Positions 7,771 through 17,537 of a stretch of DNA of 26,295 bases are shown here, piece after piece; position 1 is the first letter of the stretch; each line of letters begins with the position of its first letter. This DNA comes from a virus. The position numbers were made by a program, and so were the translations under genes. Location of the stretch: the IMG/VR virus record IMGVR_UViG_3300001847_000838, positions 1 to 26,295 of that record; one strand, written 5' to 3'. The notes under the pieces are model-generated. The model was not told the DNA's origin. It saw nothing but the letters and a program-made list of their open reading frames with translations, and searched no databases.

Positions 7771-9765
7771 CTAGAAGTCCCAAACGATCTTCTTGCTATT
7801 TTTATTATTTTCTTCAACATTTTCAATACGTTGAGTAGCCCTATTTGAGATCTCTGTAAGTATCTGTTGAGCATGGGCCTGATTCATAGGAATTGTAGGA
7901 ATTTTTTGATCAGGAATTAAAGGCTTAGACTTTTCTTCTCCTGATACCAATATTTTACCGCCTACTTTAGTTGCAAACACATTCTGTCCTATATAACGAA
8001 GGGCATCCATAACGTCAGCAAACTCTTCATCATCTGGTATAGTTGTAGGATTTCCAGCATTATCTAATATAAAGTGGTGCACTTTAAACCCAGTTAGTAA
8101 TTTAGCGTTTTGACAACGATCTTCTCCAGTTTTTGGGTCTATATCTTTAAGCACTAGCAACCGCCTCATGTTTCCTGAGTCTACTATTTGTCCTCTAATA
8201 GCTTCAATACCGCCAAGTACATCCTTTTTAAAGTCTGGAACTTTATGAGTTCTAAACCTTTTTCTCCAAGTTTTTATATTTGCAGGTGCCGCTGTATCAC
8301 AAAACCATTTATCTATACTATATTTGTCATCGATTTCTACAGCTTTAGGTAAAAACTCTGCTTCCACTTCAAGCTGTGGAGCCCCAAATGTTTCTAGTAT
8401 AAATGAATAGCCAACTTTAGTTACTGCCATAACAACTATAGTTGCCTCGTGTGTATATCCCCAATCTATACCGGCATAAATTTTAGAATCAAGACGTTTA
8501 AGCAAATTCACAAATTCTTGCATATTAGATCCGGAAACGTTTTCTCCAGTTAGCATACTAAACGCACTATCTATAGTCACAGCATTTTTTTGTTGGTCAA
8601 ATCTAGGATATACTAAACCTTTTGTGGAAGGCCTCCAGCACATTAGCTGCGCTTCCCCTTTGTCCGGAGTAACTCTTGCAAAAGATCCTATAGTACCAGA
8701 AATAGGACGATATAAATTTCTTATAGAGTTTTCTGGCTTTTGAGCTAATTGAGTTTTACATACTGAAAGCAGTTTACAGGAAAGACATCCAGGATGAGCA
8801 TTAATAGATTGATACTCAGGTTTGTCTTGCTGAGGCAAAGAATCATAGTCTTCTTTTGATAAATACTTTAAAGGAAGTTTTTTTGCTGCATAAACTGTTG
8901 TTGTTTTACCTTCAGAATCTGGTTTATAGCGTTCGGGAAAACATTTTTCGGTTATGTCCATAATATTCCATTGAAGTATCTCTTCTCCAGCCTCTTTTGC
9001 TTGATCAAGTTCTTTTTGCATTAAACCAAAAGCAAATTTTCTTGTCGATAGCTTAACAGTTATAGGAAATCTGCCATTTTCTCCTTGAGAAGGTATGAAT
9101 TTAGCTTCCTCATAAGCATTAGGGTCTCTTACTACATCGACTTCATCTATAAACATGATTGGCGTATGCTCACTGTTTGCACCAGCTATAGTGCATACAA
9201 TTACTACAAGATAAGGCTCTTTTTCTTCTGGAGTTTTAAATTGAATTTTAGTTTTTGAATCTGTCTGTTTACGCCACCCATTTGCATGAAGAAAAGGCTC
9301 AAGCTTGTTAAAAAACCCGTTAACATAACTAACGCATTTATCTGATTGTTTTTCAATAGCAGCCATATGGCTTATACTTACTTGAAAATGCAACAAAATA
9401 AGGACTTCAAGCATTGAGGCGGAAAGAGTTTTATAAGCTTCTCGTGCTGACAGCATGATATACCCTCTAACAACATCTCCAGTGTTATCTCTAACTGCCT
9501 TATAAATTGTCCACATAGCATCGAGGGGGTTGCTATTGGAATCCTCATCAACAGTATCAGAAGGAAGTTCTATCTTAAAAAAGGTTCTTACCCAATTCCG
9601 AAGATCTTCTTTATCTTGTAAAATTTCAAGCATAACCTCTGCTTTTGCACGCTCTTCTTGATCAAGTTTAAGGTAAGCCTTAACAGTAAAAGCGCGAAGG
9701 TCTGGGCGCATAATATTTATGCGCTTTTCAAATTTAGAAGTTATAAAATTGAACTGATCATTCAT
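7771..9765 (-). CDS. terL: Terminase large subunit
   Basis: Deviant Walker A LSAREAYKT, Walker B IMFIDEVD, coupling motif LST, linker GLVYPRF, RNase H-like nuclease AGIDWG...DALRY. Upstream of the portal gene. Confidence 0.85.
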   Translation of the reverse strand: MNDQFNFITSKFEKRINIMRPDLRAFTVKAYLKLDQEERAKAEVMLEILQDKEDLRNWVRTFFKIELPSDTVDEDSNSNPLDAMWTIYKAVRDNTGDVVRGYIMLSAREAYKTLSASMLEVLILLHFQVSISHMAAIEKQSDKCVSYVNGFFNKLEPFLHANGWRKQTDSKTKIQFKTPEEKEPYLVVIVCTIAGANSEHTPIMFIDEVDVVRDPNAYEEAKFIPSQGENGRFPITVKLSTRKFAFGLMQKELDQAKEAGEEILQWNIMDITEKCFPERYKPDSEGKTTTVYAAKKLPLKYLSKEDYDSLPQQDKPEYQSINAHPGCLSCKLLSVCKTQLAQKPENSIRNLYRPISGTIGSFARVTPDKGEAQLMCWRPSTKGLVYPRFDQQKNAVTIDSAFSMLTGENVSGSNMQEFVNLLKRLDSKIYAGIDWGYTHEATIVVMAVTKVGYSFILETFGAPQLEVEAEFLPKAVEIDDKYSIDKWFCDTAAPANIKTWRKRFRTHKVPDFKKDVLGGIEAIRGQIVDSGNMRRLLVLKDIDPKTGEDRCQNAKLLTGFKVHHFILDNAGNPTTIPDDEEFADVMDALRYIGQNVFATKVGGKILVSGEEKSKPLIPDQKIPTIPMNQAHAQQILTEISNRATQRIENVEENNKNSKKIVWDF

Positions 9766-11528
9766 GGCCGCTCATTGGCTTCATTAACAAAACCATCAGG
9801 GTTGTTTACGGATCTTTCAAACTCGCGATCCGCCTTTGCCTCTTCGCGCTCAACTGCCTCATCTCTTGGATATGCGACAATTCCGCCAATAGTTCCCATA
9901 ACAGTAGCTATGGATGCGGCATTTTTTAATGCTTCCTCTACAGCCGGAGCAGAATCAAAAATTCCAAGCTCTTCTGGAAGGCCATATTCTTGGTTTTCTA
10001 CATCATAAACGTCATCAGGATGATCAATTAAATATTCTAATATGTCAGTTATTTCTTGTCCTCTGTAACCCGCATTGTCTAGTAAGCGATAAATTGGAAC
10101 CATCAAAGATGGACAAAGTACTTCCTTTATTACATCACTTGCTTCTGGATCAGATAAAAGCTCTGTGTTTAAATCAATCAAAGTACGGCAGCCTCCGGGG
10201 AGAACGCCTTTAGCGATAGCGCTGCGAACAGCGCATACAGCATCTTCGCATCTGTCATGTGCTTCTTTTAGCTCCCCATTAGATCCGCCATAAATAGTAA
10301 GCTTAGCGATACCATTAGTAATTTTGCCAAGGCGTTCTTCTAACCATCTTTTTTCTGCTTCTGATTCTGCAGATTCTTTTTGAGACCGAAGTTCATCGGC
10401 TCTAACTTCTACGTTTAAAGACTCAGGATCTCCTACTACTGTACTTCTAAACCGATAAGCTTCAAAGTACTCCATGCCTTTACCTAAATCTTCGGGACGA
10501 GCATCAGCCACGCGGTCCTTGATACCAAACACCTTGGCGCCAGTAAAAGCTGCCATATCAAGCAAAAATTGAAGCTGAGAGTTAATAAACTGAGCCATAG
10601 GGGTAATCATAGGCACAATATTCATCGTATTGGGATTGCCAAAATTGAAGGCTAGCTGGGTAAGGACATTATCGCTGTACCCATGAGCAAAGATAACTAA
10701 GTTGCGAAAGTCAGAGTTGCCTTCAATATAGCCTTGAGCAAGCATATTGAGAAGCTCATTAAAAGTTACTAAGTCGTTTACTTGACCATCATATAGTAAA
10801 AATAAAGGTTTTTCAAGAAAACATCGTTGGTTGCTTTGGTCGTTAATAAAAGCGGTGTGAAACTTTCCAATAGATTCTTCGTACCCGATCGGTATAGGAA
10901 ACCCCTCAATTAGACCAATTTCGTACCCGAACGGGCCAGAAATTTCCTTAATTGTAACATGGGAATTTTCTCCATACCCTACAAGCTCAAAAGCTTTAAT
11001 TACAGCATCGGCCATATCGTCATCCCCATTAGCCGATACTTTTGCTACCATGCGGAGTAGTCCTTTGTTGTCTTCTGTGATAGGTATTGCTTTTTCCCTA
11101 ATGCGTGGAACTAGATTTTTTCTTACTACTTTAGAAAGTTCTCTAGCTGCTTTTTGAGGGCTATATTTAGGGTTTTCTTTACAAAAATCATAAAGATATC
11201 CAACCATTGCCGCAGAGAGTATTGTGGCTGTAGTTGTCCCATCTCCTGCTTCTGTAGCGGTGCGTTTAGCTGCATCTCTAGCTTGCTCTATAATCAAGTG
11301 CTCATAAGAATTTGAAGATCCTAAGCTATTAAAAACCGTAACCCCATCCTTAGTATTTTTATTTGGAATACCGGGATAATCGCTTTCTAGCAAAATATTC
11401 TTTCCGCCAGGCCCATAAGTGTTTCCTACTACTTCGCTGATTTTGTTCATAGTTTCTACTACAATCTTTTCCAAAGTCTTAGGATTGGACACAAACATTT
11501 TGGGGCTTGTTTTAACTTTTCTGATCAT
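9762..11528 (-). CDS. groEL: Phage-encoded GroEL-like chaperonin (Cpn60)
   Basis: Motifs TYGPGGKN, TKDGVTV, EAGDGTTTAT, VSANGD, ERLGKI, EDAVCAVRSAI..GVLPGG and GIFDS. Start placed at ATG 11528 after SD AAGGAG. No C-terminal GGM tail. Confidence 0.93.
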   Translation of the reverse strand: MIRKVKTSPKMFVSNPKTLEKIVVETMNKISEVVGNTYGPGGKNILLESDYPGIPNKNTKDGVTVFNSLGSSNSYEHLIIEQARDAAKRTATEAGDGTTTATILSAAMVGYLYDFCKENPKYSPQKAARELSKVVRKNLVPRIREKAIPITEDNKGLLRMVAKVSANGDDDMADAVIKAFELVGYGENSHVTIKEISGPFGYEIGLIEGFPIPIGYEESIGKFHTAFINDQSNQRCFLEKPLFLLYDGQVNDLVTFNELLNMLAQGYIEGNSDFRNLVIFAHGYSDNVLTQLAFNFGNPNTMNIVPMITPMAQFINSQLQFLLDMAAFTGAKVFGIKDRVADARPEDLGKGMEYFEAYRFRSTVVGDPESLNVEVRADELRSQKESAESEAEKRWLEERLGKITNGIAKLTIYGGSNGELKEAHDRCEDAVCAVRSAIAKGVLPGGCRTLIDLNTELLSDPEASDVIKEVLCPSLMVPIYRLLDNAGYRGQEITDILEYLIDHPDDVYDVENQEYGLPEELGIFDSAPAVEEALKNAASIATVMGTIGGIVAYPRDEAVEREEAKADREFERSVNNPDGFVNEANERP

Positions 11529-11560
11529 GCTTTCTCCTTTTGAACCCTTTAAATACTTTA

Positions 11561-11585
11561 ATATCACAAAAGCATGTGATATCTT
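11561..11585. promoter_or_regulatory. Divergent promoter palindrome ATATCACA-N6-TGTGATAT (back-to-back extended -10 elements or an operator)
   Basis: Perfect 8-bp inverted repeat at 11561-11568 and 11575-11582. The plus strand reads TGTGaTATCTT, ending 7 nt before the helicase ATG. The minus strand reads TGTGaTATTAA toward groEL. Confidence 0.55.
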
Positions 11586-11592
11586 ACTAACA

Positions 11593-13140
11593 ATGAAAGT
11601 TATTATATCAGATCCTACAAAAGCATATGTATCTGGAACGGATGAAGAGGTCTATAAGTTAAAAAAACTTCTTACCTATACAAACACCAGCGCTCAGTTT
11701 CAATATCGTAAAATATTAAAAAATAGATGGTGGAAAAATAGAGATCCAGATGGATGGGCTAAAGCCTGTGAAGACCTTAAATGCAAAATAAAGTCCGTGT
11801 TGGTATTTGAAGATTCGAACGGTATATTTGTACGGCCAGCTTCCTTATCATATTTAGAGCCTTATTTTTCAGATATGTCCCAAAATACAGTTGTTAAGGT
11901 AAGCTTTCCTAATCCTAGACCTTTTCCTTGGCATAATCCTCTTCCTTTTATTTTGCACCCTTACCAAGATGAGTCAATTAAAAACTTGATCTCTGTTAAA
12001 CACGGGAATGTTCAACTTTGCACTGGTGCAGGTAAATCTGCGATTATATTAAAAATAGCTAGAGATCTTGGTTTAAAAACAGTCGTTGCAGTTCCTTCGG
12101 TAAGCATTTTTAACGAAATGCTTAAAAACTTTGAGCATCATTTTGGAAAGTCATCAGTAGGAGCCTTAGGAGATGGAAAAAAACGTTTAGGAAAACTGTT
12201 TACGGTAGCTATATCAAATTCGCTTCGTAACCTTTCCTCTGAATCAGCAGAGTACAAAGAAATTGCTAGTGCTGACGTGTTGTTGGTAGACGAATCTCAT
12301 CTTTGGGGAGCCGATACTCTTGAGGAGCTATGCCATAGCCTATTTTGTAAGACTCCATACAGAATGTTCTTTAGCGGCACACAAACTAGAAGCAATGGCA
12401 CGGAAGTTCTTCTTCAAAGCATAATTGGCAAAACCGTCTGTACATTGACTACTGAAGATGCAGTAAAAAAAAGATATGTTTGTGATCACGACTTTACAAT
12501 AATCAAAGTCCCCACACAAAGGCCATCCTATAGTTCTGATGATCCTATAGATATGAAAAGAAAACACCTTCTTAATAACGAGAATGTAGCAATACTTTAT
12601 GCAAAGATAGCCAATTCTAGCGCTAAAGTAAAAGGAGAATCCACTTTAGTTTTGGTAGAAGAAATTCACCAAATAGCTTTAATAGCAAAATTCCTTGAGG
12701 TACCCTATGCTTATGCTCATGGAAATACTGGAAATAAAAGCGAACTTTCTGATCTTGGCTTAAGTAAATCCAACGCTGAAGAAGCCGTCGAAAAGTTTAA
12801 CAAAGGAGAGGTTAAGGTATTGATTGGGACAAGCTGTATATCAACCGGAACAAATATATACCCTACCCATAATACCTGTAACTGGCAAGGCGGAAGCTCC
12901 GAGATTAAGACCAAACAAGGTACAATTGGAAGATCGGTTAGACACCTTAAAGGCTCTAAATATGAAAAATTTCATTCTATTCCCAAAATGAAAACAAAAA
13001 TATATGATGTAGATGTAATAGGGGTGCCGGCCCCTACAAATAAAGATGGATCAACTGGAATATCCGACTTAAAACGTCAACTAATAGATCGAATAGATTG
13101 TTATCGAGATTCTGGTACTCAAATAAGATATATAGGATAA
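11593..13140 (+). CDS. Superfamily 2 DNA helicase (UvsW-like)
   Basis: Q motif LHPYQ, Walker A CTGAGKS, DESH box, motif III SGT, motif V STGTNI, motif VI QGTIGRSVR. Start moved to ATG 11593 to avoid overlap with groEL. Confidence 0.88.
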   Translation: MKVIISDPTKAYVSGTDEEVYKLKKLLTYTNTSAQFQYRKILKNRWWKNRDPDGWAKACEDLKCKIKSVLVFEDSNGIFVRPASLSYLEPYFSDMSQNTVVKVSFPNPRPFPWHNPLPFILHPYQDESIKNLISVKHGNVQLCTGAGKSAIILKIARDLGLKTVVAVPSVSIFNEMLKNFEHHFGKSSVGALGDGKKRLGKLFTVAISNSLRNLSSESAEYKEIASADVLLVDESHLWGADTLEELCHSLFCKTPYRMFFSGTQTRSNGTEVLLQSIIGKTVCTLTTEDAVKKRYVCDHDFTIIKVPTQRPSYSSDDPIDMKRKHLLNNENVAILYAKIANSSAKVKGESTLVLVEEIHQIALIAKFLEVPYAYAHGNTGNKSELSDLGLSKSNAEEAVEKFNKGEVKVLIGTSCISTGTNIYPTHNTCNWQGGSSEIKTKQGTIGRSVRHLKGSKYEKFHSIPKMKTKIYDVDVIGVPAPTNKDGSTGISDLKRQLIDRIDCYRDSGTQIRYIG

Positions 13141-13155
13141 TTATATTGGGTCACA

Positions 13156-13164
13156 TGATAAGTT
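13156..13164 (+). promoter_or_regulatory. Extended -10 promoter TGnTAAGTT, probably giving a leaderless transcript of the sigma gene
   Basis: TG-A-TAAGTT at 13156-13164, then 7 nt to ATG 13172. No SD sequence. A GGTCA/TGACC inverted repeat flanks it. Confidence 0.45.
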
Positions 13165-13171
13165 GACCTAA

Positions 13172-14221
13172 ATGACTAAGAAAAACAAAAAAGAATTTTA
13201 TAAAAACGATAACAGCCTATATTGGCTTGCTGAATCTGTTACCAAAGCTATAGAAAACAATGAGGACGGAACCTTTCAAAAAGAACAGGTTGAAGTTCTT
13301 ATGGAATTAGAAGAAAAGTTTAGGCGTAGTCTTCTTAAATATAGACAAACTACAGAAATATACCGCATGTTTATTATGATGGTGGTTGTCCAAAATAGAA
13401 ACATACTTAGCGCTAGGCCTTATTTTAGAGAAAAGTCAGATGTTTTTAGTTCTAAAATAACTCCAGCTATAAAGACTGGACAAGTTAAGGTGCTACAAAG
13501 TTTTCATATAAATTATCTTTTAATAAAGTTTATAAAAGATAATTGGGTAGGGCCGTTTCCAGAGCGAGCCCAAAAATTTTACAACAAAGCTTTAGTTGCA
13601 AGAAGAAAGCTTATAGAAAACAATATTCCCCTTGCAATCAATAGAGCAAAGCTATTTTACCGCAAGGTCCCTAAAGGCCAACTATCTTTAATGGACATGA
13701 TTGGTATAGCATCTACAGGGTTGATAAGTGGTGTGGACAAATGGGTTGGAGAGTACACACCAGTTTTTCGAAGTGTTTGCATAGGCAGAATGGGAGGTAA
13801 TATGATAGATAGCTATTCTGATACTATGCTTCACTTTTATCCTTCTGATCGCCACATCCTTTACAGAGCAAATTCTATAGCTTACAGAGAAGGTATAGAA
13901 GACTATGAAAGTCTAGCTGGTGCTATCAATAAAAGCTTTGATCAAGATAAAACTGAAGGAAGAAAGTCTTCTACTAAACCGATAAGCTCATCAGAGTTAG
14001 CTTCTTTAATGAAAGCGGCCTCTGTAATGAGCGCTACCCTGCCATTTGATCCCGAAGCTAACTGTACTACGCTATTTGATGTTGAAGATTTAAACCCTAA
14101 CGAAGAGGATATGGAAGACTCTATAGCTAACAGAGAAGCTTTATCTAAAACATTAGCGGCTGCCTCTAAATTGTCAATTTTACATCAAAAAATTTTAAAA
14201 TTAAAAGGAGTAAAGCTATGA
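13172..14221 (+). CDS. Phage RNA polymerase sigma70-like factor (region 2 present, region 4.2 absent)
   Basis: ARRKLIENNIPLAINRAKLF...LSLMDMIGIASTGLISGVDKW matches sigma regions 2.1-2.2. The protein ends right after a 4.1-like helix, LSILHQKILKLKG. Confidence 0.8.
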   Translation: MTKKNKKEFYKNDNSLYWLAESVTKAIENNEDGTFQKEQVEVLMELEEKFRRSLLKYRQTTEIYRMFIMMVVVQNRNILSARPYFREKSDVFSSKITPAIKTGQVKVLQSFHINYLLIKFIKDNWVGPFPERAQKFYNKALVARRKLIENNIPLAINRAKLFYRKVPKGQLSLMDMIGIASTGLISGVDKWVGEYTPVFRSVCIGRMGGNMIDSYSDTMLHFYPSDRHILYRANSIAYREGIEDYESLAGAINKSFDQDKTEGRKSSTKPISSSELASLMKAASVMSATLPFDPEANCTTLFDVEDLNPNEEDMEDSIANREALSKTLAAASKLSILHQKILKLKGVKL

Positions 14222-14550
14222 AATTGCCAGCATACAGCATGAACGACAAGCTTATACTTGAACCCTACGATCACGGGCAGGGATTAAAAACAGAGATAAG
14301 AAATGGTCTAGCTTTTGTGCAGCAAAAGGTTAATCTTGTACCTCTTCGCGTTCTTGTAGAGGCTAGACTAAATGATGGTAGCTATATACCTTCGGGAGCT
14401 ATTGTGTATCTAGAAGAGGATGCTTTATGCGGAAAAACAGCCACATGGGCAAAAGTTGTCAGAAAATGTAAAGCTCTTAAAGATCAACAGTTTATTATTG
14501 TTGATAAGCAGCACATTATAATGGTTGACACAGGGGAAGATATCCAGTAA
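14218..14550 (+). CDS. Divergent GroES/Cpn10-like co-chaperonin
   Basis: 110 aa. By-eye alignment to GroES: MNDKLILEP ~ LHDRVIVKR; KTEIRNGLAFV ~ mobile loop ETKSAGGIVL; IPSGAIVYL ~ VKVGDIVIF; QQFIIVDKQHIIMV ~ EEVLIMSESDILAI. Confidence 0.55.
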   Translation: MKLPAYSMNDKLILEPYDHGQGLKTEIRNGLAFVQQKVNLVPLRVLVEARLNDGSYIPSGAIVYLEEDALCGKTATWAKVVRKCKALKDQQFIIVDKQHIIMVDTGEDIQ

Positions 14551-14553
14551 ACT
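14525..14553 (+). promoter_or_regulatory. Sigma70-type promoter, TTGACA-N17-TAAACT, probably giving a leaderless transcript
   Basis: TTGACA at 14525-14530, 17-nt spacer, TAAACT at 14548-14553. The ATG follows 6 nt later at 14560. No SD. Confidence 0.72.
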
Positions 14554-14559
14554 TATTGG

Positions 14560-15528
14560 ATGAAAACCATCCGAGTAGGCGATCCACATATACGCCCAGA
14601 TAATCTAGAAGAATCAGAACGCCTTATGCAGTTCATCTATGAGCTAGCAAGCTCTCCAGACATTGGAAGCTTAGAGTTTATGGGAGATCAAATGCATACT
14701 CACGCGGTTCTTCGAATGGAAGTTATAGAGTTTTGGATGAGGTGGGCAAAAAAATTTGGCTCTATTGTTTCAACAAAGTTTATCGTTGGAAACCACGATC
14801 AACCAGGAGACTATCAAAGAGAGCGAAACATGAACTCTATGGCTTGCTTGGAGGGTATTTCTAATGTTTATGTAATATCTACCCCTTGGATATCAGACAA
14901 AACATTGTATATACCTCATATGAGCAAACAGGAAGATTTTATTGCGGCAATAGAGTGGGCAAAGGGTCAGCACGCAAATTTATCAGATCACATATTAATT
15001 TGTCATCAAACTTTTAATGGAAGTATGTACGAAAATGGTTTTTATGCCAAGGATGGCTTTGAACCATCTACAGTTTTGGAATTTAAAGCTGTAATATGTG
15101 GCCATATTCATAAGCAGCAAAAGTTTGCTAATATATTTTATATTGGTACTCCTAGATGGGATTCTGTATCTGATGCAAATGAAGATAAGGGCGTATGGAT
15201 ATTTGAAGGAATAGACGCCAAATTTGTATCAACAAAAAAAGTGTGCACACCTATTACATCAATACTATTAAAAGAGGGTGATCAGTTACCAGAAATTCCT
15301 GACGGTAGAGTTTTAGTAACCCTAGAGGGCTCTCAAGTGTGGATAGCATCTATTGGAAAAAATCTTAAGGGAAAAGTAAGAATAATCCCTAAGCCTACAG
15401 ATGCTCGCAATAAAGCCAAGGATGCTAGCAATAAGCTAAGTTCTATGGAAAGCTATGCAAAACATCATAAGTTTGATCCAAACGTTACGGCTAAAGAAGT
15501 TCTTGATTACCTAAAAGGTTTAGCATGA
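14560..15528 (+). CDS. sbcD: SbcD/Mre11-like (T4 gp47-like) nuclease subunit
   Basis: Calcineurin-like motifs GDPH, GDQMH, GNHD, HQT and GHIH. The SbcC partner is downstream. Confidence 0.88.
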   Translation: MKTIRVGDPHIRPDNLEESERLMQFIYELASSPDIGSLEFMGDQMHTHAVLRMEVIEFWMRWAKKFGSIVSTKFIVGNHDQPGDYQRERNMNSMACLEGISNVYVISTPWISDKTLYIPHMSKQEDFIAAIEWAKGQHANLSDHILICHQTFNGSMYENGFYAKDGFEPSTVLEFKAVICGHIHKQQKFANIFYIGTPRWDSVSDANEDKGVWIFEGIDAKFVSTKKVCTPITSILLKEGDQLPEIPDGRVLVTLEGSQVWIASIGKNLKGKVRIIPKPTDARNKAKDASNKLSSMESYAKHHKFDPNVTAKEVLDYLKGLA

Positions 15529-15845: not shown

Positions 15846-16533
15846 TTTGAGCCAAGATCAAAAGCAGGATATAGAAAACTCACTAGAGCCTGCTCGTACC
15901 TATGGGATGAACCCTAAAGAGATAGACTCTTTAAGAAGGTACATAGAAAGTGGTATGCCCGGAATAATTTCCGTAAAAGATGAGCAAGTAGAGACTATTT
16001 TTAAACTATATATGGAAGGTTGTAGCTACAGCGAAATTTCAATGAAGACCTTCATTAAGAAGGACATAATATTGTTTTTGTCATATAAATATGACTGGTG
16101 TTCTAAAAAACAGGAACGAGTAAGAAGCATCATTGAATCTCTAGACAACAAGATCGGGATGATACGCCTAGAAAGCTCAGAATTTATAGTAGACGTAGCA
16201 AGGTTTATACACGGATATATAAGAGATAGAATTAAGATATACGAAAAAACAAAAGACCCAGCCGTTCTTGATGCTACGGACTGGAAAATGCTTAACCATT
16301 ATTACAAGTGCGTAGAGGTAATGAAGGGATCTAACCCCATGACTCTGCCTACTCAAGGGTCACAACAAACTCCAAACGTCAGCATATATGCTGCTGACGG
16401 GTCTACGGTAAACTTAGGGAAGGAAACTAGCAATACCAACGTTGATCATGGATCCCTCTTAAAGTTCTTTGCAGACTTGGAACGTGCGAAGGAACAACAA
16501 CAAAACGAAAAGAAAGAAAGAAAGGAAAAATAA
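15817..16533 (+). CDS. HTH-containing protein, possible terminase small subunit
   Basis: IFKLYMEGCSYSEISMKTFIKKDIILFLSYKYDW resembles N-terminal TerS-type HTHs, followed by helices and a basic tail. Start uncertain; a later TTG is possible. Confidence 0.5.
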   Translation: MSKAKRLENSLSQDQKQDIENSLEPARTYGMNPKEIDSLRRYIESGMPGIISVKDEQVETIFKLYMEGCSYSEISMKTFIKKDIILFLSYKYDWCSKKQERVRSIIESLDNKIGMIRLESSEFIVDVARFIHGYIRDRIKIYEKTKDPAVLDATDWKMLNHYYKCVEVMKGSNPMTLPTQGSQQTPNVSIYAADGSTVNLGKETSNTNVDHGSLLKFFADLERAKEQQQNEKKERKEK

Positions 16534-17537
16534 TGAGTAAGCTATTATCAATGCTCGCTTTTGTCCTTGCCTTAACGGTATCTACCGCTATGGCAGGCGA
16601 TGGAGCAAAAAACAACACAAATAGTTCTGAGCAAGAACTAACGCTATCTAAAGACAACACAGTGATTTTATCGGATGTTATTGACGATCTGTCGGTAGCT
16701 AAGGTAGTTTCACAAGCCCGACAACTTGATGCCAGCTTAAAAAGTGGATATCCTATTGTTTTGGTGCTCAATACACCAGGTGGAAGCATTCAATCTGGAA
16801 TTGAAATGTTTGAGGCGCTTAAGGCTCTTAATCGACCAGTAAAAACGCTCACTATCTTTGCTGCATCTATGGGCTTTCAGACCGTGCAGCATTTAGGTGA
16901 GCGAAATATCCTAAATTACGGAGTGCTAATGAGCCATAAAGCTTATGGCGGTTTTCAGGGAGAGTTTGCAGATGGGCTTTCTCAGCTAGATAGCCGATAT
17001 GGATTTTGGCTTCGTCGGTTAAAAGCTATGGATGAGCAAACTGTTAGGCGCACAAATGGCAAACAAACGCTTCAATCTTATCGTAACTCTTACCAGAATG
17101 AACTCTGGCTAAACGGCCAAGAAGCTGTAGATAGCGGCTATGCTGACAAGGTTGTTAGCGCTCGCTGTGATTCTTCTTTAAACGGTACCAGAACTCAGGA
17201 CGTAAGCTTTTTTGGGATGACAATCCGACTTTCTTTTAGTGAGTGCCCATTGATTACGGCTCCGCTTGAAGTCGCAGTTCTTGTTCACACAAACGTTGGA
17301 GCCTTGCCGTTAAATGAATTCCTTCAAAAAGGTGGACTAATGCAAACAGATTGTCCTCCTTCTGATTCATCATATTCCTATTCTACTTTTGGGCCTCCAG
17401 TACCAGATACAAAAAAACAAGTTGTATGTGCACTGGATAAAGCTTTGACAGTAGAAAAGGTCCAACAAGAAAAAGACAAGCTAATGTTAAAATACTCTAT
17501 CAATGGTCGCAAGTCTGAAATATTAGTTAAACCATAA
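16533..17537 (+). CDS. ClpP-like (S14/S49 fold) serine protease with N-terminal signal peptide
   Basis: LNTPGGS, FAASMG (catalytic Ser), LMSH (His), ELWLNGQEAVDSGYAD. The N-terminus MSKLLSMLAFVLALTVSTAMA has a signal-peptide layout with an A-x-A site. Confidence 0.82.
   Translation: MSKLLSMLAFVLALTVSTAMAGDGAKNNTNSSEQELTLSKDNTVILSDVIDDLSVAKVVSQARQLDASLKSGYPIVLVLNTPGGSIQSGIEMFEALKALNRPVKTLTIFAASMGFQTVQHLGERNILNYGVLMSHKAYGGFQGEFADGLSQLDSRYGFWLRRLKAMDEQTVRRTNGKQTLQSYRNSYQNELWLNGQEAVDSGYADKVVSARCDSSLNGTRTQDVSFFGMTIRLSFSECPLITAPLEVAVLVHTNVGALPLNEFLQKGGLMQTDCPPSDSSYSYSTFGPPVPDTKKQVVCALDKALTVEKVQQEKDKLMLKYSINGRKSEILVKP

Follow-up and report, generated by a model that had tools for sequence, protein, structure and literature searches.

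A predicted GroES-like co-chaperonin undetected by sequence models in GroEL-encoding phages related to Myxococcus phage Mx1

The window analyzed here (26,295 nucleotides) makes up the opening 26.3 kb of a 121-kb virus record in IMG/VR (IMGVR_UViG_3300001847_000838; estimated completeness, 75%) from an uncultured relative of Myxococcus phage Mx1. It encodes a GroEL and, on the divergent strand with 2.69 kb between the two starts, a protein of 110 amino acids (aa), here called X. An earlier reading of the letters alone (the original prediction) had proposed that X is a cryptic GroES-like partner of this GroEL. X probably adopts the fold of the GroES/T4 gp31 type of chaperonin lid, as judged from predicted structures. 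The reading that we favor, and to which we give somewhat more than half of our confidence, is that X represents a third family of sequence-cryptic phage co-chaperonins, after gp31 and CocO, and is paired with the phage GroEL. On the modeling evidence, the widespread Mx1-like phage group probably brings a complete chaperonin, with X as its predicted lid. The features concerned are as follows.

9762..11528 (frame open to a GTG at 11567), minus strand: phage GroEL, from Pfam PF00118, PHROG 5725, and Hsp60/GroEL structure matches
14218..14550, plus strand: protein X, 110 aa, predicted GroES/gp31-fold co-chaperonin candidate, from its relatives, structure model, fold searches, and hhalign
14269..14334, plus strand: X residues 18 to 39, mobile-loop-like segment, from low model confidence, conservation, and the hhalign register

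Predicted fold of protein X

The plus-strand open reading frame (ORF) of 110 aa singled out by the original prediction is a real gene and no chance ORF. A word-indexed search with X gave three close relatives and no more; the alignment of these served as the query of an exhaustive HMMER search, which recovered 177 cluster representatives (clusters at 50% identity) at E ≤ 1e-3 and 64 at E ≤ 1e-10. Members are mostly 95 to 135 aa long, and the family alignment, A2, holds 128 sequences. The homolog in Mx1, WNM70310.1, is annotated as a hypothetical protein and was detected by the family profile alone (E of 3e-18); a tblastn search of 50,697 phage records with X gave no match.

Modeling of X by AlphaFold2 (AF2) on the 128-sequence alignment gave a predicted local distance difference test score (pLDDT) of 83.9 and a predicted template modeling score (pTM) of 0.75; with the three close relatives alone, pLDDT was 48 and the model was unusable. 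The model is nearly all beta, with a low-confidence segment at residues 21 to 40, a short hairpin at 46 to 57, and short helices within 67 to 90. As a check, the original prediction had named a Foldseek comparison of 14218-14550, and co-chaperonins indeed top the list: the first ~30 matches to the model in the PDB are all Cpn10, GroES, Hsp10, or gp31 (probability, 0.9 to 1.0), among them chains of Thermus Cpn10, human Hsp10, E. coli GroES, M. tuberculosis Cpn10, and T4 gp31, at modest values (E of ~1e-3 to 1e-1; template modeling score [TM] of 0.4 to 0.5). The GroES-like domains of medium-chain dehydrogenases rank after the co-chaperonins. The VIA search, which covers 48,161 representative chains and is independent of Foldseek, returned three chains alone at Z ≥ 5, namely, GroES (5.8), T4 gp31 (1g31_A; 5.3 over 89 residues), and Hsp10 (5.1), followed by a chloroplast Cpn20-type chain at 4.3, with all remaining chains at ≤3.4. 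After re-alignment of the Foldseek list, 30 chains had Z ≥ 5, every one of them a co-chaperonin; the best re-alignment places model residues 4 to 105 on GroES residues 2 to 96 (Z of 6.5 over 86 residues), and the GroES beta-barrel is covered end to end on the predicted model. The next fold class, again the dehydrogenase GroES-like domains, stays at Z ≤ 3.9, and OB and SH3 folds stay at Z ≤ 2.7.

Two further libraries point the same way. Nearly all named entries among the top 50 BFVD matches to the model are viral GroES. For the ESM Atlas single-sequence model of the exact X protein, the nearest structural cluster is "Co-chaperonin GroES," which is viral and 100% PF00166 (TM of 0.61/0.67 over 86 residues). 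The weight of the fold evidence lies in a ranking exclusive to co-chaperonins, together with end-to-end coverage of the predicted structure. A complex prediction of X with the GroEL apical domain (residues 188 to 412) scored 0.02, below the mark, and weighs neither way.

Between the strands at residues 11 to 14 and 40 to 45, X has a loop that corresponds in topological position to the GroES mobile loop. Mean pLDDT is 54 to 65 for residues 21 to 40, compared with 91 to 96 for residues 41 to 70 and 81 to 100. The top conserved columns of the family are G30 (98%), Q36 (98%), A32 (88%), and K37 (85%), all four inside this low-confidence segment, besides L43, E67, G60, N9, and Y17. The family motif of the loop is [N/S/G]-G-F-A-x-[V/I]-x-Q-K, which reads N-G-L-A-F-V-Q-Q-K in the window; after the conserved Gly come F/L-A-x and then V/I, whereas the canonical tripeptide is of the I-V-L type. 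Conservation combined with predicted flexibility would suit a loop that takes on order when it meets a partner.

At the sequence level, hhalign aligned the X family with a diverse Cpn10 profile over 91 collinear columns, covering both proteins almost fully (P of 2e-4; probability, 46%). This profile holds 49 sequences, mostly cellular with some of phage type, from six-frame searches of the genomes of two phyla. The register places K-x-x-V-x-x-G-F-A of the X family on K-T-x-x-G-I-i-L of the Cpn10 mobile loop, I-P-a-G-S-x-V-Y on V-k-v-G-D-x-V-f, and, in the last two strands, F-I-I-v-d...V-v-x-v on e-y-l-I-i-x-E-x-D-i-l. It is identical to the register set by eye in the original prediction, GLAFV on GroES GIVL. 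The real score of 25.3 compares with 11.4 ± 2.4 (maximum, 18.8) in column shuffles, and 0 of 200 shuffles reached it; strand-rich proteins pass a column-shuffling null rather easily, so the match is supportive, not conclusive. In sum, the proposal of a cryptic GroES-like protein holds as to the predicted GroES/gp31 fold with a mobile-loop-like segment (AF2, fold searches, ESM Atlas, and, marginally, hhalign), and what speaks for the proposed pairing with GroEL is co-occurrence.

The phage GroEL and the gene neighborhood of X

The clear minus-strand GroEL of the original prediction (ORF 9762-11567) is borne out by Pfam, PHROG, and Hsp60/GroEL structure-sequence matches. The protein matches Pfam Cpn60_TCP1 (PF00118; 3e-30, 105.7 bits, cutoff of 34.3) and PHROG 5725 "chaperonin groEL" (3e-79), and its residues 35 to 570 align with solved Hsp60/GroEL chains (E of 1e-46). 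The translation contains the nucleotide-binding motif GDGTTT (as EAGDGTTTAT), which is invariant in 26 relatives. By these sequence matches, the product of 9762-11528 is a group I GroEL. Its true start is probably 11528 (M14), because 25 environmental relatives start at the M14 position, and the length from this start is 588 aa. Among deposited sequences, the GroEL of Myxococcus phage Mx1 comes closest, at 44% identity. Whereas Hsp60/GroEL chains align over the full length, phage EL gp146 aligns over the N-terminal third alone (E of 1.6e-23). Group I chaperonins normally require a lid (PMC9598537); that the phage GroEL is of this type and nearer to Hsp60/GroEL than to EL gp146 speaks for X as a lid.

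In place of C-terminal Gly-Gly-Met repeats, the phage GroEL has a conserved charged tail (window positions 9762-9800; loci L014 to L058), the last residues of which, N-E-A-N-E-R-P or close variants, are kept in most of 25 GroEL relatives. Gly-Gly-Met repeats are not a defining feature of group I chaperonins. This tail would project inward, and the interior of the folding chamber may thus be chemically unlike that of GroEL. The most distant X-bearing records (G062/G063; L087 and L088) have a GroEL-like open frame of 736 aa, whose Pfam match falls in three pieces, suggesting large insertions in the chaperonin.

Do X and GroEL travel together? A scan with the window GroEL returned 45 viral contigs at 59 to 75% identity. 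The X profile was found in 25 of the 43 GroEL-bearing records searched, including all 8 with a completeness of at least 90%; the X-negative records are short fragments, have groEL at a contig end, or are fragments of an arrangement in which X lies ~9.6 kb from groEL and thus past the contig end. Records retrieved via X carried GroEL in 3 of 3 and then in 16 of 17 cases, including 6 of 6 with a completeness of at least 90%, and in the sole X record without GroEL, the contig begins 2 kb away from X. The cultured phage Mx1 carries X as well as GroEL. The original prediction had suggested co-occurrence across related phages as a check, and X and GroEL do stand together in every near-complete relative, whether these are reached through GroEL or through X. 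The lineage comprises at least 60 IMG/VR records of 150 to 177 kb plus Mx1. Pfam Cpn10 was not found at E ≤ 10 in the full record of the window (six-frame) or in 10 of 10 near-complete genomes, Mx1 included; in the control for this search, Cpn10 was found in 12 of 14 genomes, and the model does recognize the phage Cpn10 adjoining the phage groEL in MW202828.

In the window, two gene arms diverge from a 64-bp gap, groEL leading leftward and the helicase rightward. The leftward arm runs groEL, terL, a 313-aa gene, portal, and other head-related genes; the rightward arm runs helicase, sigma-factor-like gene, X, SbcD-like nuclease, several genes, and SbcC. The immediate neighbors are the following.

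7771..9765, minus strand: terminase large subunit (terL), directly downstream of groEL (PHROG 5653, 6e-9)
11593-13140, plus strand: helicase (Pfam ResIII/Helicase_C, PHROG 16)
13172-14221, plus strand: sigma-factor-like gene (PHROG 351 at 4e-4)
14560..15528, plus strand: SbcD-like nuclease gene, directly 3' of X (Pfam Metallophos, 8e-7; PHROG 100, 1e-26)

The groEL stop overlaps the terL start at 9762-9765, and the ATG start codon of X overlaps the stop of the upstream sigma-like gene. Among ~90 loci compared, several of them drawn twice from one contig, the order helicase-sigma-X-SbcD is invariant and co-directional in every locus holding these genes, Mx1 included; the order GroEL-TerL-portal is kept in most relatives, and a metagenome scan gave 13 loci, all with identical synteny. 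Three placements of groEL are seen: most loci, the window included, have it divergent from the helicase with terL-portal after it; others have it upstream and co-directional, as groEL-terL-portal-...-helicase-sigma-X; and in Mx1 and two distant records it is divergent from the helicase but apart from terL. The distance between X and groEL is ~2.6 to 10 kb in all three. The loci contrasted here are L026, L029, L035, L053, L064, L065, L069, and L076 versus L059 (Mx1), L087, and L088; in one arrangement terL-portal has moved downstream of sbcD, with groEL left behind. With the groEL/terL/portal arm placed in three ways relative to the invariant block, the boundary at the helicase gene appears to be a site of repeated inversion or rearrangement.

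This layout lends itself to another role for X, which we consider rather improbable. X would be a GroES-like barrel serving its own module, either as a small cofactor of the truncated sigma-like factor, functionally analogous to a late-transcription co-activator, or as an accessory of helicase/SbcCD replication-recombination, and its loop would bind RNA polymerase, sigma, or DNA-processing proteins instead of GroEL. Such a role would suit the fixed helicase-sigma-X-SbcD block, relative to which groEL shifts position and orientation, as well as the overlap of the X start with the sigma-like stop, a loop motif whose invariant Q-K is unlike GroES, and the acidic terminal extensions of some members. 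The best structural matches, however, are specifically co-chaperonins and not generic barrels (OB and SH3 folds, Z ≤ 2.7), and X is nearly all beta, whereas T4 gp33, the known late co-activator, is helical. X also has no match to a DNA- or RNA polymerase-binding family, and the X and sigma distance matrices show no special coupling (partial r of -0.10; a weak test). In the mirror-tree comparison of 28 genomes from which this value comes, the partial correlations of X with GroEL and with the helicase were 0.16 and 0.37, and the comparison is uninformative because X gives just 98 columns. A tblastn search with the sigma-like protein for phages that have this gene but no GroEL returned Mx1 as the sole match.

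Competing explanations and comparison with known systems

Several findings weigh against X as the lid of the phage GroEL. X alone does not match Pfam Cpn10 (PF00166) at E ≤ 1, and 0 of the 128 family members do so at E ≤ 0.1; by sequence model (PF00166 above the curated cutoff), X is not a Cpn10/GroES member. Neither X nor its family has an informative Pfam or PHROG match, phage co-chaperonin PHROGs included; the family profile has no match among PDB sequences; and hhalign against a narrow phage Cpn10 profile, since superseded by the diverse one, gave a probability of 1%. In the loop, Ala occupies the second hydrophobic position, the third is often polar, and the invariant Gln-Lys is foreign to GroES; an insertion of ~25 residues, partly helical (67 to 90), is without a GroES counterpart. 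The fixed neighbors of X are the sigma-like gene, with its start/stop overlap, and sbcD, not groEL. Moreover, the helicase, the sigma-like gene, sbcD, and terL are equally constant in this one lineage, so the X-GroEL co-occurrence is not independent evidence: it is necessary for the lid hypothesis and does not discriminate. Finally, the structural scores are modest (Z < 8, TM of 0.4 to 0.6, root mean square deviation of ~5 Å), and by the aligner's notes, Z < 8 may reflect a common strand arrangement.

This last point leads to the explanation that the fold call is an artifact, X being a small protein, rich in beta structure, whose different or novel fold is drawn toward co-chaperonins by a common strand arrangement and model bias. 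The aligner's notes class Z values of 5 to 6.5 at ~5 Å as "middling," the three-sequence model was poor, the ESM Atlas model has a pLDDT of 0.56, and the shuffling null is lenient for strand-rich profiles. Set against these doubts, two predictors and two aligners on three libraries agree on co-chaperonins, end to end and with a clear gap to the next class, and the sequence-profile register of hhalign agrees with the structural register. We regard an artifact as very unlikely.

How would X work as a lid? As a highly diverged GroES/gp31-type co-chaperonin, X would assemble into a ring-shaped lid, and its loop (G30-L-A-F-V...Q36-K37) would dock in the hydrophobic apical-domain groove of the ATP-bound phage GroEL. 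The lid would then seal a chamber in which phage proteins fold, the likeliest clients being the head and packaging proteins encoded after groEL, and X may also be able to use host GroEL. A bolder version, which we hold possible if doubtful, is that the phage GroEL and X make up a chaperonin of the phage's own, independent of the host, with a lid-ring code orthogonal to host GroES/GroEL, and that many "GroEL only" lineages hide cryptic lids. In that case, the loop G-F-A-x-V-x-Q-K would face a modified apical groove, and host components would be unable to cap or poison the phage chamber.

The likeness of X to Cpn10 (GroES, Hsp10; PF00166) is broad. X has ~100 aa, like Cpn10, and its predicted beta-barrel shares the strand order of Cpn10; strands 2 and 3 are joined by a long loop, modeled as flexible, with a Gly and then hydrophobic residues. 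The X model has a short hairpin at the place of the roof hairpin, one strand carries G-x-x-V-[Y/F] as in Cpn10, the C-terminal strands form a hydrophobic pair, and the gene stands in a genome with a group I GroEL. X differs in lacking membership at the level of hidden Markov models, in its loop (G-F-A-x-V-x-Q-K versus G-G-I-V-L), and in the insertion at 67 to 90. Unlike the genes of a groES-groEL operon, X lies 2.7 kb from groEL on the other strand, behind the sigma-like gene. Viral lids with altered mobile-loop residues have been reported (PMC5649160).

T4 gp31 and RB49 CocO offer a second comparison and, with it, a third alternative. Like X, they are phage-encoded proteins of ~110 aa with the GroES fold (predicted in X), are missed by ordinary sequence searches, and presumably serve the folding of head proteins; they act on host GroEL in phages without their own GroEL (PMC9598537). 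On these precedents of sequence-cryptic lids for host GroEL, X could be a gp31/CocO-like lid for the host ring, with a lid-free phage GroEL beside it and two separate chaperone functions. The biochemically characterized phage GroELs, EL gp146, OBP gp246, and AR9 gp228, are divergent chaperonins that work without a co-chaperonin (PMC9598537, PMC7185714), and like the window GroEL they are GroEL homologs encoded by large phage genomes; X and groEL, moreover, do not share an operon. In contrast to gp31 and CocO, however, X is always accompanied by a phage GroEL and was never found without one in a near-complete genome, and this GroEL is far nearer to the lid-dependent group I chaperonins than to EL gp146. 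Whereas gp31 is without a roof hairpin (PMC5649160), the X model has its short hairpin at 46 to 57; the gp31/CocO type combines the missing hairpin with an enlarged cavity and a phage without groEL, and X departs from it in both its hairpin and its accompanying GroEL. The lineage reaches from Mx1, whose host is recorded as Myxococcus, to this window with a G+C content of ~35 to 54% per 1-kb window, and its hosts are possibly diverse; if they are that diverse, it would seem simpler for the lid to be matched to a ring inherited along with it. We consider a lid for host GroEL distinctly unlikely.

Recognizable ring-lid pairs in phages are a third point of comparison for the favored pairing of X with the phage GroEL. 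Operons of phage groEL and groES, the latter an ordinary Cpn10, occur commonly in virioplankton viromes (Marine et al. 2017, PMC5649160), and deposited phage genomes also carry groEL and Cpn10 (e.g., MW202828, Vibrio phage VAP7). The background given in the original prediction was right about the lid-free GroELs of EL, OBP, and AR9 but had passed over these phages. As in the viral operons, a phage of the X lineage would hold both ring and lid, with X as the predicted lid; unlike in them, where a recognizable Cpn10 adjoins groEL, X is cryptic and lies outside an operon. By the criteria of PMC5649160, the X lineage would fall in a "GroEL only" clade, and such viral clades have so far been read as lid-independent or as borrowing host GroES (PMC5649160, PMC9598537).

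Viromes and deposited genomes already provide phage groEL-groES pairs, so a phage with both chaperonin parts is no novelty in itself; the new element here would be a candidate lid that is undetected by sequence models and non-operonic, in a lineage that would be scored as "GroEL only." If X is the lid, a large environmental phage lineage has a full chaperonin with a lid that neither Pfam nor PHROGs can see, and X would be the first of the three cryptic families (gp31, CocO, and X) found beside a phage-encoded ring. Lids that escape sequence models may thus be present in phages classed as "GroEL only." For annotators, X would then supply a new family model, and for chaperonin biochemists, a natural, strongly diverged lid-ring pair with which to study recognition specificity. 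Mx1 and its Myxococcus host are cultivable, so the lid idea is directly testable.

Further observations on the X family and its surroundings

Some members of the X family reach 140 to 155 aa with C-terminal extensions, acidic in several (L059:3075-3539 from Mx1, L026:21202-21654, P0007, and P0039); others were called with long N-terminal extensions, which may be gene calls overextended into the overlapping sigma-like frame. Three of the 150 matches listed (P0060, P0132, and P0152) are long LRR/NACHT and CARDB repeat proteins and were set aside as false positives. No related loci were found for the outlying members P0119 and P0037. In Mx1, whose genome announcement does not mention chaperonins, the small protein encoded beside groEL was considered as the counterpart of X and rejected: BLASTP with X was empty, and the protein is a zinc ribbon.

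The region is also represented in RNA libraries. Four aquatic metatranscriptome runs from one study contain identical short contigs that cover parts of terL, groEL, the sigma-like gene, X, and sbcD, although level and strand are unreadable from contigs. One contig of 417 nucleotides (14164-14580) spans the whole of X. All of these contigs may stem from DNA carry-over.

Several metagenome-assembled genomes (MAGs) labeled "bacterial," and one labeled "archaeal" (L089 to L113; G064 to G066), contain many short Cpn10 genes of phage type, 85 to 90 aa long, with up to 8 Cpn10 matches in one MAG beside a single cellular groES. These genes probably belong to phage contigs binned into the MAGs.

As called mechanically, the helicase ORF has a GTG start that overlaps groEL on the opposite strand (11419-11592); M59, at 11593, is the likely start, and together with the likely groEL start at 11528 it gives the divergent gap of 64 bp. 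In relatives, the groEL-helicase gap goes down to ~25 bp. Between sbcD and sbcC lies a 334-aa gene (16533-17537) with PHROG matches to head maturation proteases, placed in the rightward replication/recombination arm and distant from the other head genes.

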